This document shows positions 2,824 through 34,582 of a DNA stretch of 64,000 bases, piece by piece. Position 1 is the stretch's first letter. Every line of letters starts with the position of its first letter. This DNA comes from a virus. The translations under genes were made by a program, and so were the position numbers. The stretch is taken from the IMG/VR virus record IMGVR_UViG_3300044638_008494, positions 32,001-96,000 of that record; one strand, 5' to 3'. The notes under the pieces were generated by a model. It was not told where the DNA came from and made no database searches. It saw nothing but the letters and a program-made list of their open reading frames with translations.

Positions 2824-2866
2824 TTCTTTTTTCTCAATAAACATTATTTATTAATAACATGTTTTT

Positions 2867-2895: not shown

Positions 2896-2900
2896 CGGAT

Positions 2901-3266
2901 ATGTTAGAAAATATAGTAATCACCTGCTTTGTAATATCCATTATACAGTATTATATGTATATGACAAATGTAATTTGGGAATATTTAAACTTGTTATCGA
3001 AAATTATAAAAATTCCTAAATTTTTTGAAGGCACAATGCTTATTAGCGCTGCAAAGCTAGAGCCAAATTATTTAATGTTTATTAATTCAGTATATAATAA
3101 CTTTTTTACAAAATTAATTTCATGCCCTATATGTACAGGGTTTTGGATGTCTGTTATTGCATCATTATTGCTTGGTAATATACTTTTATTCGGGCCAATA
3201 GCTTACGTATCATTATGTCTTTATTTTTCAATAAAACTTTTGACAAATAGATCCTATAGAATATAA
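2901..3266 (+). CDS. Small membrane protein, DUF1360-like
   Basis: Hydrophobic helices and LISCPICTGFW (CPxCxGxW) motif. Confidence 0.6.
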   Translation: MLENIVITCFVISIIQYYMYMTNVIWEYLNLLSKIIKIPKFFEGTMLISAAKLEPNYLMFINSVYNNFFTKLISCPICTGFWMSVIASLLLGNILLFGPIAYVSLCLYFSIKLLTNRSYRI

Positions 3267-14464: not shown

Positions 14465-14482
14465 TTATTTTATTTAATATTA

Positions 14483-16285: not shown

Positions 16286-16289
16286 ATTT

Positions 16290-17825
16290 TTATTCAGTAT
16301 ATACGTAAGTAAAACTTACTTTCCTACCATCAAGATCCTCATTTATAGTTTTTGCTGTTAAAATCGAAAGCTTATATTCATTTACAATTTGTTGTATAAA
16401 ATTCAAAGTATCAATATACTTTCCACTTTCAAATGAGGCATTTCCCTGTATTTGTATTGTTTGTGGCTGCTCATGAGTTCCATAAGCGCTCCATTCAGAA
16501 CAAAGTGGCTGTTTAAATTCATATTGCTGCAAAGAGTATGATTTTGTTATCCCATATGTTAAAGATTTTATATAGCACGGTATTACTGTATTTATCTTAT
16601 TAATACTCCAATTACATTTATAAATTATTTTAGATGCAGACTCGCTATATGTAACGTTTTCCTGTGCAAGTTTAAAATATGATAAATTATAATCATTATT
16701 ATTAAATTCATCTATGTTTTTTATAAATTCATTTAGTGGGTTAAATTTAGTATTAAAATAATCAACAACGCGAGTGTATCTTTCGGATTGATTTCCAACT
16801 CTGCATGTTATTTCCGAGACCATTTCTGCCGAATCTTGGTCGGCCTGTATATCGTATCCAAGATTAAAAGATGCCGTAGATTTGACAGCTATTATTGGAC
16901 TATTATCATTATTGAATACTGCGTTGAATTCAATAGTGTTACTTTGCAAGTTCTCATTAACACCAGAAGTTAAATAAAATGAATTAAGATCTCCATTATT
17001 TGTACATCCACTATAAACATCAAAAGCCAAACTCCACAAATCTAAAGTTTTATATTGATTTCTTACATTTTGTATGTTATTTCCCAACCCGCCTTCGATA
17101 CTTCCGTTAATACTAACCGTAGTAAAATTATCAAGATCTTTATTAATTGTATTGCTATATCTTATAATTCCAGTAACAATATTTGCTTGATCAAATATAT
17201 AATCTTCTTTTATTGAATATGTTCCATTCAAACGATCTGAAAATTCTGAAATTGAAACAAGTGTTGGCAAATTATTATCATGAATATTAATAAAAGCAGG
17301 TTTAATAAAATTATTTAATCCAGTCCTTGAGTATACCCAGTTCCTTGCGTTATAAATTGCTGCGTTTTTATTAGTCACACCATTTGCCGAGACTGAGTGG
17401 CTTATATTTACGCTTCTATTATTATTTTCTTCTACAACAAATTCATCTACAGGATTGGTTACAAAATGTTTTCCGCTAAACGATAATGGATCAAAAACTT
17501 CCACATTAACAGTAAATGGCAAAATATACGCATAGTTTGATTCATCAAAAGATATATCTCTAATAATAACATTATCGGCATTATAGATAATATTATTATC
17601 TTCTTTAATTTGAAAATTTTTGAAATTTTGCGCGAAATTACTTACCAACTGCTGCTGTTTTAATAACATGCCACTAAAACCCACACCACAGCCTACAATC
17701 TCCCCCTCTAAATTAAAAGTGTCAATAGATTGCCACCAACCATCACTTTCTCTATTAAAAGAGACAAATGGAGTGTAGCATATTCCACTAAATGCATTTT
17801 TATTATTATACCAAATTTCATTCAT
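16290..17825 (-). CDS. Putative distal-tail (Dit-like) protein
   Basis: Second gene after the TMP; appears paralogous to 17818..19389 (both have an ISHS/YSH strand then a TYS/TFS-x-x-E motif). Confidence 0.45.
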   Translation of the reverse strand: MNEIWYNNKNAFSGICYTPFVSFNRESDGWWQSIDTFNLEGEIVGCGVGFSGMLLKQQQLVSNFAQNFKNFQIKEDNNIIYNADNVIIRDISFDESNYAYILPFTVNVEVFDPLSFSGKHFVTNPVDEFVVEENNNRSVNISHSVSANGVTNKNAAIYNARNWVYSRTGLNNFIKPAFINIHDNNLPTLVSISEFSDRLNGTYSIKEDYIFDQANIVTGIIRYSNTINKDLDNFTTVSINGSIEGGLGNNIQNVRNQYKTLDLWSLAFDVYSGCTNNGDLNSFYLTSGVNENLQSNTIEFNAVFNNDNSPIIAVKSTASFNLGYDIQADQDSAEMVSEITCRVGNQSERYTRVVDYFNTKFNPLNEFIKNIDEFNNNDYNLSYFKLAQENVTYSESASKIIYKCNWSINKINTVIPCYIKSLTYGITKSYSLQQYEFKQPLCSEWSAYGTHEQPQTIQIQGNASFESGKYIDTLNFIQQIVNEYKLSILTAKTINEDLDGRKVSFTYVYTE

Positions 17826-19389
17826 CGTCTATAGAAGTTACAGAGAATTGTGCGGTTCTTTCCATTGGATTTATGGATAATGTAGCGGATGTTGTTATTT
17901 CGCCCTCGCCGCCTTCATACATATCTTCAGGAAAAGTATTTAAAATCGTTTCCTTATTATATTTTCTTATTTTTGTTTTTGTTATTTCCTTAAAAGATTT
18001 TTGTTGGTGAAATTGTCTAACTAATTTATTAGATATTTTATATTCATCAAACAATCTTACTGGATAATTTATTGATTTAGACGATACACTTTCAGTATAT
18101 TCTCCTGATAAGTTTATGTTCCTATCAGAATATATTGCTGTATAATCAAGGTCGCCATTATACTTAGAAACTGTAAGTGATTTGTTTTTTAAATTTAAAA
18201 TTGGCTTTTTAATTTTATTACAAGAAATATTTTTATCTATTAAAGCCTCATAAGCATCATATGCAGCTGGATATAGTAAATTTATTTTTTGCTCATATCC
18301 ATATTTCATATTTTCATATTTTTCTTGCGAATTTAATGGCCCATGTCCTTTTATTTTTAAATTTACTTGCGATGCAGATTCATATGGATCCGCAAAATTC
18401 GTCGTTGCATCTAATATCCAAGAAAATCGTGATGATATAAACTTCTGATCAGAATATTTTGACTCTAATTGAATTCTTCCATCAAACCTATTGGCCTGAT
18501 ATCCTTGCGATACGGCAAATGAATTAAGAGTTCCGCTCGTATAATTCTGATAAAATGACTGGCATCTTGAATATGATAACCCTGAAATGGATTTTAATTT
18601 ATTTTTTGCTCCATCAAATCTTGGATCAGACAATCCCAGAATATCTGCAGTTTCTGTTACTTCTGATACGCCTTCTTCATTTCTTAACAAAGAATATGAA
18701 TAAAATACATCAGCATCATTATCTCCATTTATTGATTTTGAAAAACTTTCTTCAAAAGAAAAAGTTTTATTTATTAAATCATATGTTTCAGAATAATTTT
18801 TTTTAACTGAAAAAAAGTTATTACCACCGCTTAATAAAAAAAATGGAACCTCTTTTCCTATTATTCCAGACGCTATAGATTTAGCTATATTGCTTGCCAA
18901 ATTCCCAACCAAGGCATTATCGAATTCAATATTTAAATTATGACTGTATTCATAAACATTATTTCGATTCAAATTTAAATTAAAATTTTCAGAAAAATTT
19001 GTTATCAAAGACAATCTGTTATCGTTGATAAAATTAGACATACCGGTGAAATATGCACCGGTCATATTATACAAATTACCTGTGGATCTAATAATTATAT
19101 CTGCTGTATATTCTGCAGTTCTAACCCAATTAGAAGAATCTACGCTTATATTAGTTATATATCCAGAACCGAAATTATGGCCATTAATAATTATTTCACT
19201 TGTAGATTTTGATAAGTTAATCAAGTCATTCAGCCCACTAAAAACGCCACTAACACCTTGACTGTTTTGAAGGTCTAATAAGAGTCCTTGTATTTGTAAA
19301 TTTTTTTCTATAGCATAATTCAACCCATAATCTCCAAAGAATTTTGGACTATGCGTGTACGTTAGTAGAGTTGCATTATCAAAAATCAT
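17818..19389 (-). CDS. Putative distal-tail (Dit-like) protein
   Basis: Immediately after the TMP; INGHNFGSGYITNISVD is a tube/Dit-like strand motif. Confidence 0.45.
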   Translation of the reverse strand: MIFDNATLLTYTHSPKFFGDYGLNYAIEKNLQIQGLLLDLQNSQGVSGVFSGLNDLINLSKSTSEIIINGHNFGSGYITNISVDSSNWVRTAEYTADIIIRSTGNLYNMTGAYFTGMSNFINDNRLSLITNFSENFNLNLNRNNVYEYSHNLNIEFDNALVGNLASNIAKSIASGIIGKEVPFFLLSGGNNFFSVKKNYSETYDLINKTFSFEESFSKSINGDNDADVFYSYSLLRNEEGVSEVTETADILGLSDPRFDGAKNKLKSISGLSYSRCQSFYQNYTSGTLNSFAVSQGYQANRFDGRIQLESKYSDQKFISSRFSWILDATTNFADPYESASQVNLKIKGHGPLNSQEKYENMKYGYEQKINLLYPAAYDAYEALIDKNISCNKIKKPILNLKNKSLTVSKYNGDLDYTAIYSDRNINLSGEYTESVSSKSINYPVRLFDEYKISNKLVRQFHQQKSFKEITKTKIRKYNKETILNTFPEDMYEGGEGEITTSATLSINPMERTAQFSVTSIDDE

Positions 19390-19391: not shown

Positions 19392-22300
19392 TTATGCAGT
19401 CTGACCATTTTTAGTTTGTAATCCAGCAATTTGCCTATTAACAGCATCAATTGCCGATGCAAGTTCTGCTCTTAACTGCTCTTGAACTTCCGATATTTTT
19501 GCTCCAACCTCAGCAATTGCCTCTTCAGACATTGATACGTCTATTTTAAAATCAGTACTAATATCAACAGGAAAACTAATATCTTGATTTAAAGTCATTT
19601 CTTTTCCACCATCTTCTACTGGCTGCTGAGATACCTCTCTCTGTGGTGACTCTTGAACTTGCTTAGTTTGTTCTTCAACTATTCCACTATTTTTATTAAC
19701 AGCCTCACGACTACCATCTAATGACTTTTTCAATTCCCTTATTTCTTCTTTTCCTTGCTCGATATTTTTAGGAGGGGCCATCGGGGCTTGAGGCTCAACT
19801 CCGATTGGCGGTTTTGATTCTGGGTTAAAATTTGGATCATAATACCCTAATCCCCCATCTGGCTGTGGAAACATTTTCGGAGGAGGAAGCGTTGGTTTAG
19901 GAAATTGAGGAAAAGCTGGGCTTAACAAAGGAGACTGAGGTGTATATGGTCGAGTTAGTGGCCCACCAATTGGCTGCAATGGAGATTGGATTTGTGGATC
20001 CGCAAATTGACCAACCAAAGGATTAACTCCTCGATTTGTAAATGGAGACGCAGTAGGTGGAACATATGGTGAAACTGCGGGGTTATTATAAGGAAAAGGC
20101 TTTGGAGCCTGAAGCGGCATACCCACGCTACCAGCTCCACCCTCTCCGAAATTAGGATCATAAAATCCTTGACTTCCATCAGGCTGAGTAAATGTTTGCG
20201 GCGGAGGAAGCGTTGGTTTAGGAAATTGAGGAAAATTAGGTCTTGGCGTCAATACTTCTCGCATATTTTCCGCTGACCCACCCAACATAACAGATCCTTC
20301 TAGCGCACTTACTATCTTATCTCCATTTAAATCTATAGCACCTATCATTTTTATAGCAAATGGATTAAGAGAATTTTCTAAAACAGACTTTATAATCGGC
20401 ATAACGTCAGTCGCCATTGTTCCATCTATACCCTTGTTTAACATACCATCTCTGGAAGCATTTGGGGCTTGATATGGCATTTGCGACAATAATGATGTTA
20501 CATCATAAGTGTTTCCAGCCTTTAACTCATCTCTTAAATACTGTATTACTGATATCATTTTATCATCTGATATTTTTTGTCCAGCCAGTAATGCGTCAAT
20601 TGAAGATTTTAATTGTTGCTGAAAATCATCGACATTTTTAATTTCAGAATTTGCATTCTGGCTCTTTTGTACGGCGAGCTGATTTACGGACCGACCAGTA
20701 TCGGTCGCCTCCACTTTTAATTCGTTTTTCAAATATTTAGAAAAATTTTCTTTTAAACTATCCGCAAACTCTTTTCCATACTTATTCATAGCATCAACTG
20801 CCAATTTATTATTTGGATCTGCCCTCCATTGGGTTAACTGCTCTTTTGTCATTGATTGAGACCATTGGCCCGACATTCGACCTTCTTCATTAAACATTTG
20901 ATGTGTTTGATATTTATCTCCCCAACTTAACAAATCAGCACCAGGATCATCTGGTCCGTAGTTGTATTTCCTACGAACTACATTTTGATAATTTTTTTCT
21001 TCAATTTCTTTTATTATTTCTTGAAATGATTTTCCTAATGGGCCACTTGATGCTCCTGATATGTTTGTATTCGGAAGTTTATTTAAAATTTGTTTTAGTA
21101 TAGAAATATTTTGAGCTACAGCTTGGTCTTGCTGCGCTTGAGATGCTTCCATTGCTTTAGCGGCCGCTGGGCTTATAATTGTAAAATTTCCGCCACTAGA
21201 GCCGCCAACGCCACTAACACCACCAACGCCGCCAGCACTACCAGCACCACTAACACTGCCAGTAGTAGCTGCTCCCCGCATTGCTGCTTTTATTGCACTT
21301 GCGGCTGCTGTGCTTGTTATTGGGGGATTTGTTGTGGCGCTTCCTCTAGCATTAGACTGCATACTAAATGCACCGCCAGAAGTTGATGGGCATAATGCAT
21401 TAATAGCTGTTTGCGCACAATTTGCCAAATTTAGTAATTTTTCCGCAGCATTATCTGCTTCTTTTTGTAATCCAGTAAAGGCTTGTTGTGAAAATTTATC
21501 CATATTTATTCCCACATATCCAATAGATTTAACCAGATCTTCAGCTGCTTGATTGAATGGGTTAGCAAATTTTTGCCCAGGCTTCATACCGCCAAACTGC
21601 TGATTAACCATATCAACCACATTTGCTCGACCCAATCCCTTTAAATTACCCAAACCAATAGCATCAAGGTATTCATCGGATTGATCTTGCAACATTGCTG
21701 TTAATCTTGATCTTTCTCCTCTTTGGTAATTTTCTGGAATTCCAAGAGCTTCCATAGCTTCTAATCTTCTGATTGACTGTTCGCGCTCGAACTTGTCCAT
21801 TTCTCTTTTATATTTTAATGGCCCAATTTCGCCAGCTTGGTATGCCCTACGAAGCTCAGTTCCCTCCATTTGTGTTGGGTCAAATCCTGATAATCCAGAA
21901 ACCCCACCAGCATATCCTTGCATTTTTTGCATGCGATCATTAAATCTACCAACTGCAATATCGAATGCCTGTTGAACTTTTTGTGCAGCATTGTTAAAAT
22001 CTATATTTTGTAGCGCCTGTTTTAAATTAAAATTTGCATCTTCAAGGCTTTTCTCATATGCGTCCTGCAGCCCTTTAGGCAATTTTGATAAATCAATTTT
22101 TTGTATATCTTCTATAGTTACAGCTTTTGCAATTTGTTCGGATACATTTTGCAAATCTACAACCTCTCCACGGTTAGCAGATGTTGTTAAATCTGCATTT
22201 TTTATATTATCTTGCAATTGCGGAACAAATGATCCCTTTAATGTATCAGCCGCTTCTTTACTTGCTTCTATAAAATCAATATAACTTTGCTGATCAATTC

Positions 22301-25300
22301 TTGCTGCGCCAATTGCCGCTTCTTGTTCAAAAGATGGGGTTCTGTACTGCATAATCGCAGTATCAGTTTGCGTGGCTAAGCCTAAATTAAATTTAGGTAT
22401 ATCTATTTTTAAAATTTTATTTAAGCTTCCTATTAATTTTGCAGAATTATCAAGCGCGTTTTTATTTTTTCTAAAATTATTAATATAATCTTGAACTACT
22501 TGTGGCAATTGTGAAATATTTTTTCTACTCTGTTCTTCAAGTCGAAGAGTATTTTGATTTTCTTCTAAACGCTTTTTCAAATTTTTAGATAAATCTTCTG
22601 ATAATCCTCTTAATTCTGCAGGTGATGCTTTTTTAAATGCTTCTTTTAATTTTTCAAGTTCTTCTGCGGTGCCTTCCCCGCCTTCTTTCAACATGCTTAA
22701 AATATTATCAAATTCTTCTCCAATACGGACCGCGTCAAATCCTTTTAATTTTTCCACCGAAGGAATTACCTTGTTTAACATGTCTATGCGGCCCTTAGTA
22801 TCAACATCTTCTCCACCGGCATAATCAAATGTAGATAAAATAGAATCAGCAATTTTTTTAGATTGATCTTTTCCTATATTGGTCCATGATGTTATAAATT
22901 CTTTACCAATATCTGTAGTTAACGATTCAATATTTGCACCTCTTGTTTGATCTTGTATATATTTAGCTAAAATTTCTTGCTGTTTTGCAACATCATTTGT
23001 CGCAGATATTTGGTTTTGTATGCTTGGTGGCAACTTTGATAATTGTCGCAAGTATTCATTTTCTGCTCTTGTTATATCTTTAATTGGGGCATTGGATTCA
23101 GTTAAATCACTTAATTTTTCTCTAGCTATTAGTAATCCTTGCGTAGACTCTTGTGCTCTTTGTGCATTTTCTGTTGCTTTTTGAACTCTTTGAGATGCAT
23201 CGCCCAATCCATTTATAGATAATGCTAGCGCATCTACAATTGGCTTTGCTGATAATGCAGCTCCAACTATTCCTCCTATTATTGCGCCTGGTGCTCCACC
23301 GCCAACTGCCGCGCCAGCCCCTGCAAAACCACCAATATTGCCTAATCCAGTCAAAAGTGACCCCGCAACTGTTTGATCTCCACCAGCTATCTGAGATCCT
23401 ATTCCGCTTGCTGTTTGAAGGGCGAATCCCAACCCCAAACCTTTATTTTTTGCAAACTCATCAAACCTTTCTCTTTTAGTCAAGCTTCGTTTATTTATAG
23501 CAGATTGAATTGTTGCTGCTCTTTCTTCAGATTTGGCCTGATCTCTCGCTACACGCTCTCTTCTTTTTTCCCTTTCTATTTGACCAGCCATTCCAGTATC
23601 TGTCCATGTCCCTGCTTGGGCATTATATAATGTAGGATTTTGTCTGGCTGTATTTTCCTGAATATCTAATTTTTGCAAAAGCTTGTTTTGCCTATTTATT
23701 CTTTGCTGGTTAGATTCAAATGCTTGATCTAATGTTTGTCCGGTGGATTTTAGTTCTCCTTTTAATTTTCTTAATTCTTTTGCTCCATCATCCAGCTGTC
23801 CTCCAAAAAATGCTAGAGAAAATAGCAATCCAGAAATTGATGCTGAAATTGCTGTAAAATCTGTTGCTCCAGAGGTGAAATTTGTTGCTCCAGAGGTGAA
23901 ATTTGTTTCATTATCTCCTGCGGCAAAATTTGGAATGAATCCAGAAGAGGCCAATAATCCAGCACCTTTCTGCATCTCTGCAGAATCCTTCATGGCGCGA
24001 TTTTTTCCACCATGTTGGCGCATAGCTGAGGCAAACGAAGGCTGACTTTTATTTCTTACGTGCAAGAATGGCTTATCATCTATTACGGCTTTTTTTCCAG
24101 AAATAGATTCTTCTAAAGCAATAACTTCTTTGACATACTGATCTGATTTTGCAAAATTTGGTATAAAACCAGAAGCTGCCATATCAGAAGTTTTGCGTAT
24201 ATTTTGATTATAATTTCTTAATTCTTTTATGGCCATTGGGCTACTAGCCAGCGACTGCAAATCCTTATCTGATAAGCCCAACTCTTTTGCTCCTTGAACA
24301 AGTGGCTTGTATTTTAAATCTCCGATCTTAATTGCGTCCAGATTAAATCCAGCATTAGATTTAGATCCGTACAGCAGTTCTTTAAATTTATTTAACTTGT
24401 CTGGCGTTCCAAGTTTTAACAACGATCCTTGCTGTATTCTTGCCAAGGCAGATTGTGCCGCAGATCTTTCTCCAAGGGTAGCGCCGCGCTTCATCAATTC
24501 TTGAATTGCTTGTATATTTACAAAATTTGGTATAAAACCAGAAGCAAATTTACCAACATTCGGCTGACTTTCAGATGCAATCCTCTTAGCCATATGTCCA
24601 AATACTATTGGGTCAATAAGCCCTACTTTATTTGTTTTTATTAAACCTTCTGGAGAAATTCCACCTTCGCGCGCCTGTATTTGCGCTTCTTTTGGAAGTG
24701 GGCGCATAAATGTAAAATTCGCTGATGAGGCAGTATCTAAAGCTAATGCTTGCAACCAATTTGGCTTTTCGCTTACAGACCTTTTTGCACTCTCAAATCT
24801 TGAATTGACAATAGCAATTAAAGATTTTTCTACCTCATAATCGTTAATTTCATCTTTAAATGTATTACCAGCAAATCTTTGCGATGTTACCAATGAGTTA
24901 CCAGAGACTCTTCTTAAAGGCAATAATTGTAAATTTGAATCAGTTTTTTTTAGTTGCCTTGTAGCTTTTGCCCAATCTATTGAACCAATATCTCTTAATT
25001 TACCTCTTTGTTGCATTGGGGACTTGTAATCTAAAGTCGGTAATTTTAGAACTTTACTTCCGGTTTTAAACGCATGAGATTCTGCCCCACTGCCTAGATA
25101 TTGTAAATCAGGATATTGTTGATATAATTTATTTATACGCTTTTCAACTGCTGGTTTTTGTTTAATCTCCTCAAAATTAAACGAACTCTTATTTCGTATT
25201 TGCTCTAAAATTGGGCTATCTGCAAAATTTGGTATAAACCCACTTGCCATAGCAAACATCCCTTGCTGGTTTGGATATTTTTTTGCAAATATTGCTCCTA

Positions 25301-28300
25301 ATTTTGCTACAATATCAGGATCTCTTAAAGCTTCTTGTGGCAATCTATTCTTTTTGACAAAGTCTTTAATCCATTGTGCTTGAAATTTATTTCTTCCAGC
25401 CATCATTGGATTTGCTGCAAATGCTGGAATAAAACCATCGGCAGCGCCAGAAGATTGTAACGCTGCCATTCTTTTCTCTACTTCTATTTCAAACTGTGAT
25501 CGCGCTCCTCCCCTTCTAAGAACTAGCCCTTCTTTTCTAATACTTTCAATAGCTTTTATTCTAAGAGCCTGAACTTTTCCAAAACCAGGCCCACTTTTTA
25601 CTTGTTTAACTGCACCAGGTTTTGCTTCGTTGAGTAATTTTTGCATTACTTCATTAGTTGCACCCGATGAGCTTTTTGCATCATACATTCCAGGCGCACC
25701 ATGAAATAATTTTCTTAATCTTGGCGTTATTCTTTCTTGTCTAAAATCAATACCAGCATTTTGAGAAGTTTTTTGTAAGCCTTGCTGAAGTAAAGTAATT
25801 AATCCACCCTCGAAGGCAACGCCAACGGCACCCTCTGCTGCTCCATAGTTAGGAAGATCTTTTGGTGATTTTAAAAAGTTTTCACCTCCTAAAACTTGTC
25901 CGAATTGATTCGCCTCACGAACAAGTAGGTCGCCTAAATTTTTTTTCAAATCAGGGAGCTGGCCTTTAATAACATCTTTATTAATTCCAGCAACCGGTAT
26001 TAGCCCTTTGTATTTTTTGCCAAGATACGAACCAGCGCCCGGTGCCATTGTGTAACCTTCAGAAATATTAGGATAAATAAGAGATACAACCTTGCCATTT
26101 AATGCTTTAGATGTTCTCGTATCACCAAGATCAATAATTTCATCGCCTTCCTTTGATGATTTGGCAAAATTTGGTATAAAACCAGAAGCTGCATTTGGAA
26201 CAACCAATTTATAATTGCTTGGCATAAAAATATTATCCTTTTGTGGAGGATTTTGTTTTTTGCTTTTTCCGTAATTAGTTTCAATAACTTTAGAAATTAA
26301 ATTATCGTTGTCTATTGTTCCAAATTTCACCTCGCCCACTGGTTTTCCTTTTGAATTTAATAGGTCCATTCTTGCAGTTTTTGATTCTGCAACTTGCAAA
26401 CCAAGACGATTCGCAGCAAATCTCTCGAAATATTTACCAACAAGATCATTTTTTACCCCAGTGAATTGTCTGTCCTTATTAACTAATTTTGTATTGCCAG
26501 ATAATAAGCTAGGAACCTTTTCTTTATTTGTGAGCAAATTTTGTTTTAACTGGCCAATTTGTTTTATAGAATACCCATTTCTTGTAAAATATTTAACAGC
26601 AGTCTCTGATAGCTTTGAATCTTTGGAATTTAAATTATTTAATTGTTTATCAAATTGATTTTCAAATGAAGATCTACTACCAATCGAAATAATATCAAAT
26701 GAAAATGGAGAATATGTATCTAAACCCTTATTTGCTACTTGAGATGATTGTACTCCAGTTATAGTACCACCTGGCAAAGATTTTTTATTTTTTGGTTGTG
26801 CGAAATTTGGCACAAACCCAGATGCAGATATTTTTTTAGCTCCATCAGGTAGACCATATTTGCTTTTCATTTCCCTATTCCATACAGCAGTTCCATCACC
26901 ACCACCATAATTAGGAACAGCCCATTCTCCAGTATGAGCCACCATTGTCCCCTTTTTATTATTTCCCATTGGGAAATTTTTCATTACAACTGGTCTATCT
27001 TTTGCTGGATTTGCGTCACCAACTCTATTATTAATATTATTTTGCTCTGCTGCTAGATGCGGCAAAAAGCCACCAGCCGCAGTTTTAACCTTAGAACCTC
27101 TTTGTGTTATAAAAGATTTTCCACCCACGTTTTGCACACCAACTTGAGACGCTGTTGTTTTTGCTATCTGTGCTGCTATAGAATTTTGCTTTTGCAACTC
27201 TATGGTTTGCTGCTTTACAATTTCTAAATATGCTTTTGCCCCAGAAGCAACAGAGGCTTGGCCGCTAGATATTGCCTTGTATATACTAGCATTATTTTGT
27301 AAAAATTTTACAACACTTTGCTGTATTACTGCTTGTTCTTTAGCTGCTTGATTTACCCCTAAAATACTTTTAAAAGCTTCAACACCATATCTAGAAAATT
27401 CTGCAAATAGTTTAACTACCGCTGCCGTTACCAAAGCAAGCCCTGGTCCGCCAATAAAATTTCCAATTCCGCTTATTATTCCGCTACCAATTTTTGCACC
27501 AATACTATCAGCATCAACATTGTTCACGGCACCAGTGAGAAATTCAGAAATATTTAAAACATTTTTTGCAGCTGGCTCAAAAAGTCCACCAGCAATATTT
27601 CCTCCAGCTTGCTGTATATTTGCCAAGGCACGCGTACCTCTAGCAGAAAGTGTTTCATTTAATTTTTCATTACGCCTTATGGCCTGATCAGTAGTTCCAA
27701 GTGATGTTTTTAAAGCTTGGTCATATATTGAATATTCCTTACCAAGATCTCCCAGCGCAGCTTTTAATACGTTAATTTGGAATACACCGCCAACCTGCTC
27801 AGCTACATAGTTTTTTTGCGTTGCAGATAATCCATCGTAAACACTAGCAAGTTCTTTCAATAATTGTACTTGCGTTTTTACATTACCCTCGGCATCTGTA
27901 GATTGTATGCCTAGCCCACCCAAAACTTCTTGTGTTTTTTCTCTACCAAGTCTTGTAAATATAGTTTTTAATGAGTTACCTATAACAGCACCGCCTCGAG
28001 CCGTAACTTGTTGCGCGGTGGTTACTAAAGCGATCAACTCATCAAAAGAAATTCCAGCATCATCAGCGGAAGATCCAACGCGGCTAAGTGCGTTTGCTAA
28101 ATCCGCAGAACTAACAGCAAAAGCAGCATCAACGTTAGCTAGTTTATTTACAATTTCAGTTGCTTGTAGCGCAGATCCCCCAAACGAGTTGATTGCGGCT
28201 GTTAATGCAGATACGCTAGCGGCGGCATCCAATCCACTTAAACGTGTTAAGATCAAAGCCGCTTCTGTTCGCTTTAATGTTTCTTCTACCCCAAGACCTT

Positions 28301-28718
28301 GACGAGAAAGTTCCGTAGCAGCTTCGGCAACCACATCAAACGATTGCGCTGTGTTCCCAGCGATATCGAATAATGAAGCTCCAAATTTCGCTAAATTTCT
28401 ATCTGTCAAATTTAACAGAACATTAACATCTGCTAATTTTTTTTCTACATTTACAAATGTATTAAATAAAGAAGTAACAGCGCTTTGTATCGCAAAGATT
28501 GCACCAGCAGATGCAGCAAAGGCAATAACGCGCGCGTTCGCTGCGGCCAAAGACTTGTCGATTTCTTGTATTTGACCGCTAATTTTGCCCAATGGCTGTG
28601 CTGCGCCACCTGCTGTTTGAATATTTAGAGTAACACCTTGCTTGGCAACCTGATCAATTTGCCGCCTAAGTTTCGCGGTATTACCATCAACATCTACTCT
28701 GATATTTGGATTAGCCAT
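19392..28718 (-). CDS. Tail tape measure protein with an internal cargo-cassette array
   Basis: N-terminal phage minor-tail domain (ELSRQG, KLANVDAAFAVSSADLANAL, IGNSLKTIFTRL); long helical Ala/Gln-rich regions; Gly-zipper hydrophobic segments; follows tail tube and chaperones. Confidence 0.92.
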   Translation of the reverse strand: MANPNIRVDVDGNTAKLRRQIDQVAKQGVTLNIQTAGGAAQPLGKISGQIQEIDKSLAAANARVIAFAASAGAIFAIQSAVTSLFNTFVNVEKKLADVNVLLNLTDRNLAKFGASLFDIAGNTAQSFDVVAEAATELSRQGLGVEETLKRTEAALILTRLSGLDAAASVSALTAAINSFGGSALQATEIVNKLANVDAAFAVSSADLANALSRVGSSADDAGISFDELIALVTTAQQVTARGGAVIGNSLKTIFTRLGREKTQEVLGGLGIQSTDAEGNVKTQVQLLKELASVYDGLSATQKNYVAEQVGGVFQINVLKAALGDLGKEYSIYDQALKTSLGTTDQAIRRNEKLNETLSARGTRALANIQQAGGNIAGGLFEPAAKNVLNISEFLTGAVNNVDADSIGAKIGSGIISGIGNFIGGPGLALVTAAVVKLFAEFSRYGVEAFKSILGVNQAAKEQAVIQQSVVKFLQNNASIYKAISSGQASVASGAKAYLEIVKQQTIELQKQNSIAAQIAKTTASQVGVQNVGGKSFITQRGSKVKTAAGGFLPHLAAEQNNINNRVGDANPAKDRPVVMKNFPMGNNKKGTMVAHTGEWAVPNYGGGDGTAVWNREMKSKYGLPDGAKKISASGFVPNFAQPKNKKSLPGGTITGVQSSQVANKGLDTYSPFSFDIISIGSRSSFENQFDKQLNNLNSKDSKLSETAVKYFTRNGYSIKQIGQLKQNLLTNKEKVPSLLSGNTKLVNKDRQFTGVKNDLVGKYFERFAANRLGLQVAESKTARMDLLNSKGKPVGEVKFGTIDNDNLISKVIETNYGKSKKQNPPQKDNIFMPSNYKLVVPNAASGFIPNFAKSSKEGDEIIDLGDTRTSKALNGKVVSLIYPNISEGYTMAPGAGSYLGKKYKGLIPVAGINKDVIKGQLPDLKKNLGDLLVREANQFGQVLGGENFLKSPKDLPNYGAAEGAVGVAFEGGLITLLQQGLQKTSQNAGIDFRQERITPRLRKLFHGAPGMYDAKSSSGATNEVMQKLLNEAKPGAVKQVKSGPGFGKVQALRIKAIESIRKEGLVLRRGGARSQFEIEVEKRMAALQSSGAADGFIPAFAANPMMAGRNKFQAQWIKDFVKKNRLPQEALRDPDIVAKLGAIFAKKYPNQQGMFAMASGFIPNFADSPILEQIRNKSSFNFEEIKQKPAVEKRINKLYQQYPDLQYLGSGAESHAFKTGSKVLKLPTLDYKSPMQQRGKLRDIGSIDWAKATRQLKKTDSNLQLLPLRRVSGNSLVTSQRFAGNTFKDEINDYEVEKSLIAIVNSRFESAKRSVSEKPNWLQALALDTASSANFTFMRPLPKEAQIQAREGGISPEGLIKTNKVGLIDPIVFGHMAKRIASESQPNVGKFASGFIPNFVNIQAIQELMKRGATLGERSAAQSALARIQQGSLLKLGTPDKLNKFKELLYGSKSNAGFNLDAIKIGDLKYKPLVQGAKELGLSDKDLQSLASSPMAIKELRNYNQNIRKTSDMAASGFIPNFAKSDQYVKEVIALEESISGKKAVIDDKPFLHVRNKSQPSFASAMRQHGGKNRAMKDSAEMQKGAGLLASSGFIPNFAAGDNETNFTSGATNFTSGATDFTAISASISGLLFSLAFFGGQLDDGAKELRKLKGELKSTGQTLDQAFESNQQRINRQNKLLQKLDIQENTARQNPTLYNAQAGTWTDTGMAGQIEREKRRERVARDQAKSEERAATIQSAINKRSLTKRERFDEFAKNKGLGLGFALQTASGIGSQIAGGDQTVAGSLLTGLGNIGGFAGAGAAVGGGAPGAIIGGIVGAALSAKPIVDALALSINGLGDASQRVQKATENAQRAQESTQGLLIAREKLSDLTESNAPIKDITRAENEYLRQLSKLPPSIQNQISATNDVAKQQEILAKYIQDQTRGANIESLTTDIGKEFITSWTNIGKDQSKKIADSILSTFDYAGGEDVDTKGRIDMLNKVIPSVEKLKGFDAVRIGEEFDNILSMLKEGGEGTAEELEKLKEAFKKASPAELRGLSEDLSKNLKKRLEENQNTLRLEEQSRKNISQLPQVVQDYINNFRKNKNALDNSAKLIGSLNKILKIDIPKFNLGLATQTDTAIMQYRTPSFEQEAAIGAARIDQQSYIDFIEASKEAADTLKGSFVPQLQDNIKNADLTTSANRGEVVDLQNVSEQIAKAVTIEDIQKIDLSKLPKGLQDAYEKSLEDANFNLKQALQNIDFNNAAQKVQQAFDIAVGRFNDRMQKMQGYAGGVSGLSGFDPTQMEGTELRRAYQAGEIGPLKYKREMDKFEREQSIRRLEAMEALGIPENYQRGERSRLTAMLQDQSDEYLDAIGLGNLKGLGRANVVDMVNQQFGGMKPGQKFANPFNQAAEDLVKSIGYVGINMDKFSQQAFTGLQKEADNAAEKLLNLANCAQTAINALCPSTSGGAFSMQSNARGSATTNPPITSTAAASAIKAAMRGAATTGSVSGAGSAGGVGGVSGVGGSSGGNFTIISPAAAKAMEASQAQQDQAVAQNISILKQILNKLPNTNISGASSGPLGKSFQEIIKEIEEKNYQNVVRRKYNYGPDDPGADLLSWGDKYQTHQMFNEEGRMSGQWSQSMTKEQLTQWRADPNNKLAVDAMNKYGKEFADSLKENFSKYLKNELKVEATDTGRSVNQLAVQKSQNANSEIKNVDDFQQQLKSSIDALLAGQKISDDKMISVIQYLRDELKAGNTYDVTSLLSQMPYQAPNASRDGMLNKGIDGTMATDVMPIIKSVLENSLNPFAIKMIGAIDLNGDKIVSALEGSVMLGGSAENMREVLTPRPNFPQFPKPTLPPPQTFTQPDGSQGFYDPNFGEGGAGSVGMPLQAPKPFPYNNPAVSPYVPPTASPFTNRGVNPLVGQFADPQIQSPLQPIGGPLTRPYTPQSPLLSPAFPQFPKPTLPPPKMFPQPDGGLGYYDPNFNPESKPPIGVEPQAPMAPPKNIEQGKEEIRELKKSLDGSREAVNKNSGIVEEQTKQVQESPQREVSQQPVEDGGKEMTLNQDISFPVDISTDFKIDVSMSEEAIAEVGAKISEVQEQLRAELASAIDAVNRQIAGLQTKNGQTA
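19882..20235 (-). repeat. 33-nt direct repeat in the Pro-rich TMP C-terminus
   Basis: GGAGGAAGCGTTGGTTTAGGAAATTGAGGAAAA at 19882-19914 and 20203-20235 (FPQFPKPTLPP twice). Confidence 0.9.
23862..23907 (-). repeat. 21-nt tandem duplication (NFTSGAT twice) in the TMP
   Basis: TGTTGCTCCAGAGGTGAAATT occurs twice in tandem. Confidence 0.9.
23922..27077 (-). repeat. Eight dispersed in-frame 27-nt repeats with consensus ASGFIPNFA
   Basis: Copies at 27051-27077, 26799-26825, 26163-26189, 25416-25442, 25221-25247, 24519-24545, 24150-24176 and 23922-23948. Confidence 0.93.
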
Positions 28719-28788: not shown

Positions 28789-29775
28789 TCAGCTCTTGCT
28801 AGCCAATTCGTATATTCCCATGCTTCCCTTTGTTTGGGATTCAGAAATTATTTTATCTCCCAATATATCACCGCCAGCAATGCTTTTAACGTCATCCCTA
28901 TCTCCAAATAAGAAAGTAGATCCCTTATTTCCTTTTTTATTTTTACTGGTAGATTCTACTCGTTTCCTATTCTTTAAAGATTCAAGCCATTGATCTAATT
29001 TATCGGGGTTATCGTAAACCCCATCTGGAATTTCAGCGTCAGAGTTTTTAATTATATTTTGATAATATTTCCCCCAAATTAAAACTTCATGCTGATTTTT
29101 TGTTAGTTTTATTACTGGCTTTCCAAACACTTCCATAGATGTGCTCCCTATATACAAGATATTTTGAAAATGATGAGATATGGCTGTTTTTTTTATTATT
29201 TTAGAAGAGAAATCGGATAAATATTTAAAATAGTAATATGTTGCCCAATCTAAGATATTTTCAGACTCTTCATCTAGATTTTTATTAAATAATAACTCTT
29301 TTAAATCTTCATTTTTAAATAAAAAATTTTGCAAGAAAAAATCAGAAGTTTTTTTTGTGGCCCACTCCTCTGATGTCATTACGATAAAGGATGATCTTTC
29401 TTTATTTAACTTATCTAATTTTTCATGCTCAGAATTAACTTGCTCGTCAATACGCTTTTTATCAGAATCATAGATTAGTTTTGATCTTGTTGTATTTAAT
29501 CTATTAATTGTTGATTTTAATATTCGAATTTGATTCTCTTTTTCTTCACTCCACCACCCATATTTGGATGCAAGCGCCACCTGATCTTCTTCTCCAAGTA
29601 TTCCATTAACGCTGGCTTCATTTAAAAATCTATCATAAATATCTCTTATCTGAAGAGACTCTGATTGGGTTAAATGCTTTAAGTATATTTTTCCGTAATT
29701 TTCTATTTGGTATACGGAATAGCCATTAGATATATCTTCAAAAACGGCCAATACATCAACACTTTGGCCACTCAT
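28789..29775 (-). CDS. Putative tail assembly chaperone
   Basis: Helical and charged; directly upstream of the TMP. Confidence 0.5.
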   Translation of the reverse strand: MSGQSVDVLAVFEDISNGYSVYQIENYGKIYLKHLTQSESLQIRDIYDRFLNEASVNGILGEEDQVALASKYGWWSEEKENQIRILKSTINRLNTTRSKLIYDSDKKRIDEQVNSEHEKLDKLNKERSSFIVMTSEEWATKKTSDFFLQNFLFKNEDLKELLFNKNLDEESENILDWATYYYFKYLSDFSSKIIKKTAISHHFQNILYIGSTSMEVFGKPVIKLTKNQHEVLIWGKYYQNIIKNSDAEIPDGVYDNPDKLDQWLESLKNRKRVESTSKNKKGNKGSTFLFGDRDDVKSIAGGDILGDKIISESQTKGSMGIYELASKS

Positions 29776-29784
29776 AATGTTAGT

Positions 29785-30561
29785 TTATTCCTCGCTTGGC
29801 TTTGTGTCTTCTATTTTATTTTCTTTATTTTCTTCAGTATCAGCGGCAGTACTGTCATCTGCTGATCGATTTGACCCAGAATCGCTATCTTTAAAATCTT
29901 GCCAATTCGAGATTCTGTTTAAAAACCAAAGCGTAATTAAATAATTAAATCTTTGACCAACCTTTATAATAAAGGCTTCATCTTCATTGTCTGGATCAAG
30001 CTGATCATACCAGTCCAGCATTTCATCGTAATTTTCACCATTAAAAAACTGCTCGTCTTCGCTTTTATAAGCTAATTGTGTTAACCACCATTGGATGGTT
30101 GCATTTCTTGCCTTAGCCTCTGCCGTATTTTCAAAAATGTAAATTTGCTCAAGCTCAAATGTTTGAATCTCCCTTTTTGATTCTTCAATTTGCAATTCAA
30201 GTTTTGCTTTTTGAAGTTTTTGTTTATTATCTAATTCGGGCAATTGGTTTAATTTGTTCAACTCGATACTTGATTCAAAAAATGTTCTTTTGGCTTTAGT
30301 ATAATCCTCTGCTTCAGAGTTTGAAATTGTTCCTCCTAAGTTTTCTAAAATAGTATTCCAAGCGGCTTTTGGCAATAGGCCAGCCTTAACAAAGCTCGCT
30401 AACTGTTTTGCGTATTCAACTTCGCCAAGTTGCCGCAAGCTTCTTGATGGTTTTAAAATATAAAATCTTTTCTCTTCATTCTTATTGTTTTTAGCAATGA
30501 ATGAGTAAATCCATTTTTTAGTATCAAAGTCCGGTTTATCCTGCACATCATTATTATTCAT
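29785..30561 (-). CDS. Putative tail assembly chaperone
   Basis: Between tail tube and TMP; coiled-coil with ENTAEAKARN motif. Confidence 0.5.
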   Translation of the reverse strand: MNNNDVQDKPDFDTKKWIYSFIAKNNKNEEKRFYILKPSRSLRQLGEVEYAKQLASFVKAGLLPKAAWNTILENLGGTISNSEAEDYTKAKRTFFESSIELNKLNQLPELDNKQKLQKAKLELQIEESKREIQTFELEQIYIFENTAEAKARNATIQWWLTQLAYKSEDEQFFNGENYDEMLDWYDQLDPDNEDEAFIIKVGQRFNYLITLWFLNRISNWQDFKDSDSGSNRSADDSTAADTEENKENKIEDTKPSEE

Positions 30562-30566
30562 ATTTA

Positions 30567-30806
30567 TTACTTTCTATTATTATCATCATTAATAAACAAA
30601 AAATCAAAATTTTCTAATTCTTTTGTTATATCTCTTATTGTATTATTTCCGTGATCAAGAATTCTCTTTCTAATTTTTTGAAATTCTTCATCTGACATGC
30701 GGCCATCAGCTACAATATCTTCTAATACATAGATAAAAGACAAAAAAAGCCTAGTCACAGACTTTTTAATATATCCGAGTACAAATTCTTTTATATTAAA
30801 TTTCAC
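30567..30806 (-). CDS. Hypothetical protein (GTG start)
   Basis: 79 aa, first gene after the tail-tube terminator; RKRILDHGN motif. Confidence 0.6.
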   Translation of the reverse strand: MKFNIKEFVLGYIKKSVTRLFLSFIYVLEDIVADGRMSDEEFQKIRKRILDHGNNTIRDITKELENFDFLFINDDNNRK

Positions 30807-30814
30807 CTTTAAAA

Positions 30815-30839
30815 ACCTTTTACCTTACATGGTATTACA
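30815..30839 (-). promoter_or_regulatory. TGTAAT motif plus AGGTAAAAGGT leader element
   Basis: TGTAAT at 30834-30839; 11-mer at 30815-30825. Confidence 0.6.
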
Positions 30840-30848
30840 CCATAAAAT

Positions 30849-30880
30849 AAAAAAAGGGGCAGAAACTGCCCCTTTTTTTT
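30849..30880. terminator. Rho-independent (bidirectional-type) terminator after the tail tube gene
   Basis: AAAAAAAGGGGCAG-AAA-CTGCCCCTTTTTTTT. Confidence 0.88.
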
Positions 30881-30899
30881 GAATTTATTTTGTTTATAA

Positions 30900-32009
30900 T
30901 TATACCAAAGCAGCTGCTGGAAAACTTCCAGACAAGAAGATACCACGTTGATTATCTTCTGGGCCACCAATTGGAACTTCAAAACTTGCAGTTAGCGTAG
31001 CATTGTCTCCGATTGATGTTGACAAGCTTTGACTTACAAGCTTAGCACCTTTAAGTGTTGCGCTCATTGCCAAATCTCCTGCACCAGAGCAGTCGATCTT
31101 CTTAAGCTTTAAGGTTAAATCGTATACTCCAGTATCGCAAAGAAGGCTAGAAATATTTCCATCTGAAAGATTTCCAACTTCAGCATCTATATCTAGCGTA
31201 GCTGTAACTGGAAAGTCAATTTCTCTAGCAAATGAGAAGCGGCTTCCCAATTTGTTCAATGGCGTTCTTGCTAAATCAAAACTCATGGTTGCTGATTGAA
31301 CTTTCAAGTCAGAAGCTGAGTACCCAATGATTCCAGTAATATCGATAGTAGCATCGCCTGGAAGAAGTGCTGTTGGTTGTGCGCCATAAGCGTTTGTTTT
31401 GTGCTGAGGCAATCTGAATGCCTGTGACGTAATTGGCAATCCATTTACTGGATTAACAGCAGGAACATCGTTATTACCATCAACTGATGAGTAAATTCTA
31501 GCATTAAGTGCTTCCAAATCAACTGTAGCTGTTGGAATATCGCCCACTGCAACATTCAAGCTATATGAAGTAACATAACTATTTCCAACACCAACAACTC
31601 CGGTTACCCCTGCATAGTTTGATGCGTCACTACCTTCAGATGCGACTAAAAGATATAGATTTTTTTCGTCGGTTGTCTTTTGAAGAATATCTTTTAAGCA
31701 TGAAACTTGTGCTTGGGTTCCTGTAGCAACAGTTAGTCCTAGCAATTTTTCATTTAAACCATCTGTTACATAGTAAGATAAGCTTGCTGAAACTGTTGGG
31801 GCTTCTGTGTCAAGACGATCAATTGCTGCAAGATTTCCAAATTGGTTAATATCTTGTAGATTTCTTGTGAAATCTGAATCAAATGATTGAACACGGGTAA
31901 GCTGTTTGATATCAGCTGATCCGGTTTGCGCCACTCTAGCACCGTTTGTTCCAGTAGTTTGGCTTGCGAATACTCCTAGTGATTGATATATAATGCGATT
32001 TCTGCTCAT
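30900..32009 (-). CDS. Major tail (tube) protein
   Basis: Beta-rich tube-like motifs (RVQS..F.RNLQDINQFG; KVQS..F.L.RTPLNKLG) that appear duplicated; has its own promoter motif and terminator; upstream of chaperones and TMP. Confidence 0.75.
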   Translation of the reverse strand: MSRNRIIYQSLGVFASQTTGTNGARVAQTGSADIKQLTRVQSFDSDFTRNLQDINQFGNLAAIDRLDTEAPTVSASLSYYVTDGLNEKLLGLTVATGTQAQVSCLKDILQKTTDEKNLYLLVASEGSDASNYAGVTGVVGVGNSYVTSYSLNVAVGDIPTATVDLEALNARIYSSVDGNNDVPAVNPVNGLPITSQAFRLPQHKTNAYGAQPTALLPGDATIDITGIIGYSASDLKVQSATMSFDLARTPLNKLGSRFSFAREIDFPVTATLDIDAEVGNLSDGNISSLLCDTGVYDLTLKLKKIDCSGAGDLAMSATLKGAKLVSQSLSTSIGDNATLTASFEVPIGGPEDNQRGIFLSGSFPAAALV

Positions 32010-32050
32010 AATTTTATATTTTATTTAAATAAAGTGTTATTCTTATACTA

Positions 32051-32056
32051 ATTACA
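32051..32056 (-). promoter_or_regulatory. TGTAAT late-promoter motif (tail tube)
   Basis: TGTAATTAGTA, the same 11-mer found upstream of 34540. Confidence 0.6.
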
Positions 32057-32084
32057 TTTAAAAAGCCCAAAAAGCCAATTTTTT

Positions 32085-32957
32085 TTAATTTATTCGCGGC
32101 TCTCTAACGTAACTTAAAGTAAAATCTGCAAATGCCCCATAAGAGTTATTTCCTACTAGTTTATTAACTGAAGGGGCAAATTTAGATATCGTTACGGAAG
32201 AGACTAGTGCCATTAAACTTCCTGTTTGGGAATATTGATGGCATAAATTTAAATAATTATAATTCTGATTTTTATAATCCCCATATATATTAAATGGCAT
32301 ATCTTTAGGGTGCAAAACAGGAAAATATTTCCTAGCCATATCTGTTGCGATTGAAACGCCAGCATCTAGTAAGTATGGTGAATCTGCCAAAAATATAGTT
32401 CTTATATTAACTACGCTTTCATCTAATCCACCGAACGCGAAAGGTTGATTTTCTGTATATTGTGTTTTAACAAAAATAGCCGGATATGTTAACTGGTCAT
32501 AACTTAATGGCGTTTTAGCATCACTTCCAAAAGAGTCATTTGGTCTTACCGGATATTTAGATTCAAATATTAGAGTATCATCTTGAGATTCAGTATAGTA
32601 TACATTATATTCTTTATAGGCATATGAGCATTTTACACTCGATAATGATGTTGATAATGTGTTGTTAAAAATCGCTCTTCCCAATTCATAATCAATGTAA
32701 AGACCACCTGTTGTTTTTGGATTAAAGGTATTGTTTATGTAAACGCCAGATGGTATATTTGCTCCATTTATTGAATAATCAGAAACAAATTGTCTGTACG
32801 GACTGGCATAAATTGTTTTATTAGAAAAATTTGGATCTTGCGTGTTATATAAATTTCCACTATTGACGTTTATATATGCAGACCCTTTTCTTAAAATTTC
32901 ATGGTCAATGAAATGTGTAAAGCTCGGCGCAATTCTATTTAAAAATTGAGGTACCAT
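32085..32957 (-). CDS. Putative tail terminator / neck protein
   Basis: YPAIFV strand motif; last gene before the tail tube. Confidence 0.5.
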   Translation of the reverse strand: MVPQFLNRIAPSFTHFIDHEILRKGSAYINVNSGNLYNTQDPNFSNKTIYASPYRQFVSDYSINGANIPSGVYINNTFNPKTTGGLYIDYELGRAIFNNTLSTSLSSVKCSYAYKEYNVYYTESQDDTLIFESKYPVRPNDSFGSDAKTPLSYDQLTYPAIFVKTQYTENQPFAFGGLDESVVNIRTIFLADSPYLLDAGVSIATDMARKYFPVLHPKDMPFNIYGDYKNQNYNYLNLCHQYSQTGSLMALVSSVTISKFAPSVNKLVGNNSYGAFADFTLSYVREPRIN

Positions 32958-32958
32958 A

Positions 32959-33543
32959 TTATTTCAAATCTATTAAAAATTTTTTCCACATTGATGACCA
33001 GTACTGCTTTCTTTGATATTGTCCAGATCTTACCTTATTATCAGCTTGAATACCGCCGCCAGATCTTCCCAATTTTTTAGAAATATAAAAGGAAAATCCA
33101 GATATTCCTTGCTCAATTGATTTTATCCATGACCTGCCAAGCTCCCAAGGCATTTGGGCATTAGCTGTAAGATCTGCATCTGAAACTCCGTTGACATCAA
33201 ATTCAAATAATATTTTATCTCCACTTTCTGATGTTTTGGGATTTTTATTTTTAATTTGTATTTTATTTTTTAAAAAAGCTATCCACAAATCTACTGGATT
33301 ATTTCCAGCATCAAATCCTATAAAAGAAAAAAGATTTCCATAACCACCTAAAGTTCCAGATATATTTGTCGAGCTTGGACCAGCTTTAATCTCTCTCGAT
33401 ACTGAGTGCGATCCAAAATCATTAATTAGTTCATTTTTAGCTTTTTCTAATTTTGATTGAGCGATTTCAAATGCCTGTTTTTTAATTTGCTTATTACTTA
33501 GAACAGCAATATTCAAATCATTTTGATTAACTCCTTTAGCCAT
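32959..33543 (-). CDS. Putative neck / tail completion protein
   Basis: Basic 194-aa protein in the head-tail joining block. Confidence 0.45.
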   Translation of the reverse strand: MAKGVNQNDLNIAVLSNKQIKKQAFEIAQSKLEKAKNELINDFGSHSVSREIKAGPSSTNISGTLGGYGNLFSFIGFDAGNNPVDLWIAFLKNKIQIKNKNPKTSESGDKILFEFDVNGVSDADLTANAQMPWELGRSWIKSIEQGISGFSFYISKKLGRSGGGIQADNKVRSGQYQRKQYWSSMWKKFLIDLK

Positions 33544-33989
33544 TACTGCATGTCCCTTCTTTTTGCGTATATTGTATAATACTGCACATCAAATAATCCG
33601 TGAAGCCTTGGAACGCCCACAGCTTCACATGCAATATTGTCAACATAAAATGATTGACTGCCGTTTAAAAATTCATAAGCGTCTTGCTTCATTTTTAATC
33701 GGCAAACTTGACCAGGTAATGGATTTTCTATACCAGGTATCAACTCTTCTTCTTTGCCATTTAACCATTTTATTCTCATTAAAAATTGGCCAGTAACGGG
33801 CACTGTATCAAAGTTAAAATTATCGGCCTGTCTATAATTTCTATATGATGAAATATAATCATCGTTAGTAATTACGTCCACTCTTTCTGGATCACGATAA
33901 ATAACAACATTTCTACCAAATGTCTCATGCAAATTATTAAACTGCGAAGACATTTCTGCTTTTTCTGCGGCTGATAAAAAAGATGGCAT
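33543..33989 (-). CDS. Putative head-closure (stopper) protein
   Basis: Likely start MPSFLS at 33989 (the track's upstream start overlaps the previous gene); small beta-rich protein after the adaptor. Confidence 0.45.
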   Translation of the reverse strand: MPSFLSAAEKAEMSSQFNNLHETFGRNVVIYRDPERVDVITNDDYISSYRNYRQADNFNFDTVPVTGQFLMRIKWLNGKEEELIPGIENPLPGQVCRLKMKQDAYEFLNGSQSFYVDNIACEAVGVPRLHGLFDVQYYTIYAKRRDMQ

Positions 33990-33991
33990 AA

Positions 33992-34540
33992 TTATAAACC
34001 TGGTTCGCTTCTTGGATAGTATACACTGCGATTTGCGCCCGCCCAATACCCTCCGTCAATAACATCAGTTCCGTCAACTGATTGTGGTTTAGATTTTGAT
34101 TTTAAATATTGTTTTACTAAATTATTAGCATTGTCCTGAGCGTCTTTACGAAAGCCTTGGTAAGTTCTAGCAAGCTCTGACCTGTTAACTCTTGTTATTG
34201 TCGAGTCGCCCTCTTTTAAAGTAGTCCATGCGCCAATATTATATGCGCCAGAAAGAGCCATTTTAGCCTCCCTGCTGTAGAAAAATGTATCAAAATTAGC
34301 CTTATAAATTGCTTGCTCTTGGTTTTCTAACGGTGGCTCTATTGCAATTCCGGTTACTTTTCCAATAGGGGAATATTTTGGACTAACCTCAAAGCATCCA
34401 TCAATTTGATTATTTAAATATCCCAAGTTGGCAGGATCTAAAAACCATCCGACTAAATAAGTATACGAATAATCGTCTCGATCTCCAAGATCCAGAACTA
34501 CATTATTTACAAAATCATTAAACCATTTAGGGTATTGCAT
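33992..34540 (-). CDS. Putative head-tail adaptor
   Basis: Likely start MQYPKW at 34540, 7 nt after TGTAAT (34548-34553); TLKEGDSTIT beta-hairpin typical of adaptors. Confidence 0.5.
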   Translation of the reverse strand: MQYPKWFNDFVNNVVLDLGDRDDYSYTYLVGWFLDPANLGYLNNQIDGCFEVSPKYSPIGKVTGIAIEPPLENQEQAIYKANFDTFFYSREAKMALSGAYNIGAWTTLKEGDSTITRVNRSELARTYQGFRKDAQDNANNLVKQYLKSKSKPQSVDGTDVIDGGYWAGANRSVYYPRSEPGL

Positions 34541-34582
34541 GTTACTAATTACACGCAATTAGCTCTTAATTAATCTATAAAA

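Follow-up and report, generated by a model that had tools for sequence, protein, structure and literature searches.

The principle of modular exchange at conserved motifs is known from T-even phages, in which the variable segments of the adhesins gp37 and gp38 are split by short conserved peptide motifs at which natural relatives recombine (Tetart et al. 1996, 1998, in Trojet et al. 2011, PMC3157838). Natural as well as laboratory recombinants are reported, with exchanges within or near the motifs that are attributed to general phage recombination. Phage recombinases are also reported to recombine short, diverged sequences efficiently, such homology being sufficient between related phages and giving rise to mosaics with sharp joints (De Paepe et al. 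2014, PMC3945230). Here we describe a related pattern in the tail tape measure gene found in a 64,000-nucleotide (nt) stretch of DNA (the window) from IMG/VR virus record IMGVR_UViG_3300044638_008494, a contig of 107 kb that is about 70% complete. The protein belongs to an undescribed but widespread tape measure family; a protein search returned 163 relatives, a scan of IMG/VR more than 560, and no paper describing its repeated motif was found. Unlike the adhesins, in which hypervariable loops are exchanged, this protein trades whole folded modules of 65-250 amino acids (aa) and larger, one single motif is reused up to 11 times, and the exchanges are known from natural sequences only. The gene-scale exchange described by De Paepe et al. 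involves identified Rad52-like recombinases, whereas the joints considered here lie within one open reading frame (ORF), at a patch of 18-27 nt.

The gene is a single ORF on the minus strand (19392-28718) encoding 3108 aa. The match of aa 121-311 to PF10145 (PhageMin_Tail; Pfam, E = 6.7e-29) and matches of the ORF to PHROG tape-measure families (E down to 1.6e-42) indicate that its product is a phage tail tape measure protein of the TP901 type. Eight copies of a nine-residue motif, consensus [AS]xG[FY][IV]PNFA, with the glycine at aa 550, 634, 846, 1095, 1160, 1394, 1517 and 1593, split the central region of the protein into seven segments (65-249 aa), among which no similarity was found. All eight copies are direct and in a single reading frame. 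The distances between them (228, 369, 702, 195, 747 and 636 nt) are multiples of 3, as a previous sequence-only reading of this DNA had pointed out; this is true but trivial, since every copy is an in-frame motif of one ORF. The array is real rather than an assembly chimera, because the protein encoded by an independent 13.6-kb contig matches 3102 of the 3108 residues with zero gaps and a third contig fragment is colinear with the array.

Comparison with close relatives locates differences in module content at the motifs. The N-terminal part, common to 113 of 120 relatives, is 99.4% identical in the relative P0003, as are the first 500 aa of the two proteins, and aa 1-601 contain only three mismatches. 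Dense mismatches start at aa 853, the first residue past the motif at aa 846-852, and identity returns to about 98% at the motif at aa 1394-1400. Between these two motifs P0003 has just a diverged version of module F1 (241 aa); this phage has F1, F27 and F43 (548 aa; modules are listed in Table 1). The differing block, aa 853-1400, is bounded exactly by two of three identical 25-mer copies (see below), and the comparison points to its recent replacement relative to P0003, the flanks of the block being 99% identical. F27 is absent from P0003, P0004 and L001, and relative to L001 this phage has a motif-bounded insertion of 299 aa.

Module sets and orders vary throughout the 120 relatives (the best 120 of the 163), in which module families were defined as clusters of inter-motif segments. 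F14, F8, F18 and F21 are found on either side of F1, and F43, which precedes F4 in this phage, follows an F4-like module in P0125. The occurrence of one module at different array positions in relatives, suggested as a check by the sequence-only reading, is thus found. Change-points were mapped with a two-state model of alignment identity in 34 close pairs (each protein used once, N-terminal identity at least 95%). Of 131 change-points within the array, 55 are at most 3 aa away from a motif, where 11.7 would be expected (P = 6e-24), and at least one motif-proximal change-point is present in 25 of the 34 pairs. In DNA alignments, identity jumps from background to at least 95% inside the GFIPNF codons, for example at aa 894 in the pair L033/L046 and at aa 621, 884 and 958 in L049/L056. 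At 32 such joints, not all of them independent, 14-18 of the 18 core bases are identical between the two genomes. These alignments place the joints inside the motif codons and show that the motifs act as recombination joints on an evolutionary scale. The earlier proposal that recombination at the repeats adds, deletes or swaps modules in frame is supported by the mosaic joints and the moved modules; the likeness to an integron or shufflon drawn along with it fares differently, as discussed below.

We consider it probable that whole modules are exchanged at the codons of the junction peptide by general recombination, with no dedicated site-specific system. The peptide would be retained for a role in the protein, between unrelated modules of the tape measure. 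Since few codons exist for Phe, Asn and Ile and AT-rich codons prevail in this genome (34% GC, with TTT, AAT and CCA leading their codon families), any two copies agree at about 14-18 of the 18 core bases, and each copy would provide a patch of 18-27 nt with 80-100% identity. Outside this patch, unrelated modules share no homology. Homology-dependent "relaxed" recombination, whether it joins co-infecting relatives or copies within a single genome, would therefore resolve there and cause in-frame gain, loss, replacement or re-ordering of whole modules. We infer the enzymes involved and the timing of the exchanges.

Across the family, in hundreds of uncultured phages, it is the peptide that is kept. 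Two to ten motif copies are present in 119 of the 120 listed proteins. In 791 distinct instances of the motif, information spans positions -3 to +6 with a sharp stop after the alanine, and Lys, Arg and Gly are frequent in the upstream flank. Tape measure ORFs contain 427 instances of the strict motif, and no other frame of 2.2 Mb of flanking phage DNA contains any. Codon usage in the motif was analyzed in 74 non-redundant genes for which DNA was available (this gene and 73 related ones). Synonymous codon identity between motif copies is 0.562 within the same gene (0.506 expected) and 0.544 between different genes (0.505 expected). Pairs of motif copies that match over 24 nt occur in none of the 73 related genes, and in L001, the nearest relative with available DNA (76% aa identity), the codon set differs at each of the five copies. 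As synonymous identity is hardly higher within genes than between them, and identical pairs are lacking in the relatives, the conserved unit is the peptide and not a DNA site. Its conservation presumably reflects a function within the protein, as a flexible joint between modules.

Three of the copies in this phage, with codon-phase starts at 24150, 24519 and 26163, contain an exact 25-mer (coordinates in Table 1) that has no other site in the window or in the 107-kb record and is absent from every other IMG/VR contig; no match to it is expected in shuffled sequence. Its reverse complement, GCT TCT GGT TTT ATA CCA AAT TTT G, encodes A-S-G-F-I-P-N-F-(A/V). The identity noted in the sequence-only reading, synonymous positions included, is therefore exact at all three sites. 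Copies 24150 and 26163 do match over 29 consecutive bases, as stated there, and agree at 35 of 36 positions across 12 codons. The sharing reported for copy 25221 was also found, the run in common with copy 24150 measuring 18 nt instead of 17, and the outer copies are indeed more diverged (15-23 of 27 nt). Downstream of the copies at aa 846 and 1517, extended homology (23 of 36 nt) exceeds the 99.9th percentile of background. Gene conversion is probably not the source of this borderline similarity, as a related F1 allele (L089) also begins with K-A-S-K-E.

The most serious alternative to general recombination at the motif codons, an unlikely one in our judgement, is that selection alone produced the pattern: illegitimate joints would form anywhere, only recombinants joined at module boundaries would survive, and the motif DNA would play no mechanical part. 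The joints coincide with domain boundaries by definition, and the homology at hand, short and imperfect (14-18 of 18 nt), is marginal for homologous recombination. In-frame illegitimate joints would be expected, however, to scatter through the linkers and to leave indels behind, whereas those observed are confined to the 18-27 nt of the motif codons and do not spread over the low-confidence linker of about 20 residues. The three identical copies in this phage point, in addition, to copying at the DNA level. Several observations weigh against general recombination at the motif codons. Motif joints could reflect selection for intact modules after random breakage; the joints with P0003 are seen at the protein level only; a double crossover alone leaves the triple identity unexplained; and the record yielded no recombinase of any kind. 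Finally, 76 of the 131 array change-points lie away from motifs, as do all those in the motif-free C-terminal part. The motifs are therefore preferred, and not exclusive, sites.

The triple identity calls for separate consideration. Chance aided by codon bias might account for it in an AT-rich genome in which TTT, AAT and CCA dominate their codon families, and the sequence-only reading had allowed for a contribution of this kind. Yet three of the eight shared codons (GCT, GGT, ATA) are not the commonest synonym; given the window's own codon usage, the probability that three copies have all codons identical is about 1e-5 per triple, with four possible triples, and none of 2000 simulations redrawing synonymous codons reached the observed three identical 24-nt pairs. 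Over all 74 genes, a mean of 0.08 identical pairs was simulated and 3 were observed, all in this window's gene. DNA identity of the three copies exceeds codon bias, and we find the chance explanation very hard to credit. Least likely of all the explanations considered is that the sequence has a DNA or RNA function of its own, as a -1 frameshift site or as part of an RNA structure. CCA AAT TTT does contain an in-frame X XXY YYZ heptamer (A AAT TTT), but the commonest codon for the motif proline in relatives is CCT (154, against 116 CCA), which destroys the heptamer; a programmed frameshift was rejected on these grounds, and folding of the sequence next to the three identical copies gives no sign of structure. 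A dedicated system for programmed cassette shuffling, with the repeat as its DNA site, would fit with in-frame direct repeats bounding every module and with an identity beyond codon bias in the window, and repeats bound exchangeable units in integrons and shufflons as well. We nonetheless regard it as highly improbable. Across the family, synonymous sites vary freely, and among IMG/VR contigs the 25-mer is confined to this record. All copies are direct, unlike the inverted sfx-type repeats of shufflons, and shuffled sequences fold as well as the 61-nt stretches that surround the three identical copies (z from -1.5 to +0.2), so that nothing like the attC hairpin of integrons is seen. Searches of the 107-kb record, about 70% complete, gave no match to tyrosine recombinases (PF00589, Phage_integrase), as expected of an IntI- or Rci-type enzyme, or to serine recombinases (Pfam Resolvase). 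The units here, moreover, are in-frame parts of one ORF, and the array is colinear in two independent assemblies and in a third contig fragment. The data do not support an integron- or shufflon-like machine. The Rad52-like annealase proposed as a mediator in the sequence-only reading was not recovered either: the Pfam models for Rad52, RecT and ERF have no match in the record, and PHROGs named no annealase among the ORFs scanned. The sole recombination-related match is an ERCC4-type nuclease (47011-47931, minus strand), which also shows a weak N-terminal C2H2 zinc-finger match and adjoins the large terminase gene.

That the three copies are identical is peculiar to this lineage. Their identity looks like the outcome of recent recombination or conversion, or like a state that chance has favoured, rather than the mark of a designed site. 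It is best read as recent local homogenisation over 25 nt, which would have occurred by conversion between copies or as a footprint of the exchange that brought in aa 853-1400. Whatever their origin, identical copies give this genome unusually good substrates for in-frame deletion between them. General recombination at the junction codons would explain why phages otherwise 99% identical differ in module content, and it removes the more exotic idea of a dedicated shuffling machine. The data show at nucleotide resolution how a very large, uncultured family of tail proteins trades whole modules, the chimeras arising in a protein that precedes the DNA into the host. A conserved peptide junction that doubles as a recombination patch also provides a testable rule for the sites of natural chimeras.

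As for what the peptide does in the protein, we favour a processing or hinge site, with a docking element as second choice. Cleavage has a precedent in other tape measure proteins that carry extra functional domains and a defined inter-domain junction: T5 pb2 (after R1127) and lambda gpH are each cut at a junction of domains while the tail is being assembled (Linares et al. 2023, PMC10038345). The precedents differ in having one cleavage site and one enzyme domain, compared with up to about ten modules fenced by one repeated peptide here. A homotrimer prediction for the F4 module with its two motifs scored 0.00 and weighs neither way. A bolder idea, which we hold to be quite unlikely, is that the peptide is used twice over: as a cut or release site freeing modules as separate ejected proteins (for example by Asn-dependent self-cleavage at P-N|F-A or by an unknown tail protease), and as low-degeneracy codons kept so that modules can be plugged in and out. 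The phage, with its three identical 25-nt direct repeats, would then throw off in-frame deletion and duplication variants within single populations. Giant multi-domain proteins with variable domain content are also known among the polyvalent proteins, which are thought to enter the host with the DNA and whose parts include kinase, GNAT and ADP-ribosyltransferase domains (Iyer et al. 2017, PMC5512222). Tape measure proteins do not come up in that paper, nor does a repeated delimiter, and most modules of the present protein have no recognisable family.

Table 1. Parts of the tape measure gene, from the N-terminal to the C-terminal end of the protein; coordinates are those of the window
Part	Position (strand)	Residues (aa)	Motif at end	Position of motif	25-mer copy	Remarks
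F0	27051-28718 (-)	1-556	AGGFLPHLA (degenerate)	27051-27077		Conserved N-terminal part
F26	26799-27050 (-)	557-640	ASGFVPNFA	26799-26825		
F7	26163-26798 (-)	641-852	ASGFIPNFA	26163-26189	1, 26165-26189	
F1	25416-26162 (-)	853-1101	ADGFIPAFA (variant)	25416-25442		Near-universal folded alpha/beta domain
F27	25221-25415 (-)	1102-1166	ASGFIPNFA	25221-25247		
F43	24519-25220 (-)	1167-1400	ASGFIPNFV	24519-24545	2, 24521-24545	Rare
F8	24150-24518 (-)	1401-1523	ASGFIPNFA	24150-24176	3, 24152-24176	
F4	23922-24149 (-)	1524-1599	SSGFIPNFA	23922-23948		Near-universal last small module
C-terminal part	19395-23921 (-)	1600-3108				Hydrophobic stretch, long low-complexity and coiled regions, no more motifs

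Module F1 has 76 family members. In an AF2 model of F1 with both its motifs, the mean predicted local distance difference test score (pLDDT) is 85, with core blocks mostly at 88-97 and the motif ends at about 50, and the motif ends would thus behave as low-confidence linkers flanking a confidently modelled domain. The module spans 235-250 aa; G121, G128, D153 and K177 are invariant and E132 nearly so among 30 sequences (numbering along the modelled stretch, 25404-26204). A PD-(D/E)xK nuclease fold, brought to mind by E132, D153 and K177, was rejected, Foldseek and VIA-align giving no domain-level match (best Z 5.4, over a helical hairpin only). F1 has no match among PDB folds, in Pfam or in the ESM Atlas, and no stand-alone homologue of 136-436 aa was found at word-search sensitivity.

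F43 has been recently acquired. Only four relatives were found among 1.84 billion representatives, three within long tape-measure-like proteins and one a 178-aa fragment. Foldseek places its low-confidence model (pLDDT 56) closest to kinase-fold enzymes, which fill nearly all the top rows (aminoglycoside and macrolide phosphotransferases, PRPK, CaMKII, NleH1), at E values of only 0.05-0.3; Pfam and HMMER detect no kinase. The model is consistent with F43 being, possibly, a small kinase-like cargo domain. Its sequence carries G-S-G-A-E-S ... V-L-K, D-x5-N and I-D-P stretches. The other modules match no recognisable family. Some relatives carry lysozyme, VanY or GNAT domains, and the GNAT domain of P0071 sits in a motif-fenced module. 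Between two full motifs, F26 holds K-N-F-P-M-G and A-V-P-N-Y-G-G-G, motif-like remnants that resemble older copies of the junction decayed within the module.

The C-terminal part shows variation and repeats of its own. P0003 also diverges from this protein in two motif-free patches, aa 1939-2060 and aa 2452-3042, neither of which is motif-bounded; the gene is therefore mosaic beyond the module array. Right after the last motif (about 23865-23915) is a short tandem peptide, NFTSGAT twice followed by DFT, and at 21191-21261 a tandem array of 9-nt units encodes a Gly/Ser/Val run. Near the 3' end of the gene lies a 96-nt direct repeat (19828-19923 and 20149-20244, 80% identity) that encodes twice a proline-rich unit (PQFPKPTLPPP ... 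QPDG ... YDPNF).

DNA of the array has no match in cultured phages by blastn, and by tblastn the sole similarity is to the generic tape-measure domain of Bacillus and Enterococcus phages, at about 28% identity; a metagenome scan for DNA of the closest relatives, P0003 and P0004, recovered none nearer than 62-74% identity. Essentially nothing is annotated in the tail module of this phage lineage. The direct neighbours of the tape measure gene have no Pfam or PHROG match, nor has any of the approximately fifteen large ORFs around it (10254-19389 and 28789-34558). Genes for terminase and portal and a weak capsid match lie upstream of the tape measure gene. Elsewhere in the window, two small minus-strand ORFs (2138-2743 and 49047-49730) give weak sigma-factor-like matches, and glycosyltransferase-like ORFs are present at 682-1758 (a sub-threshold match) and 5711-6943.

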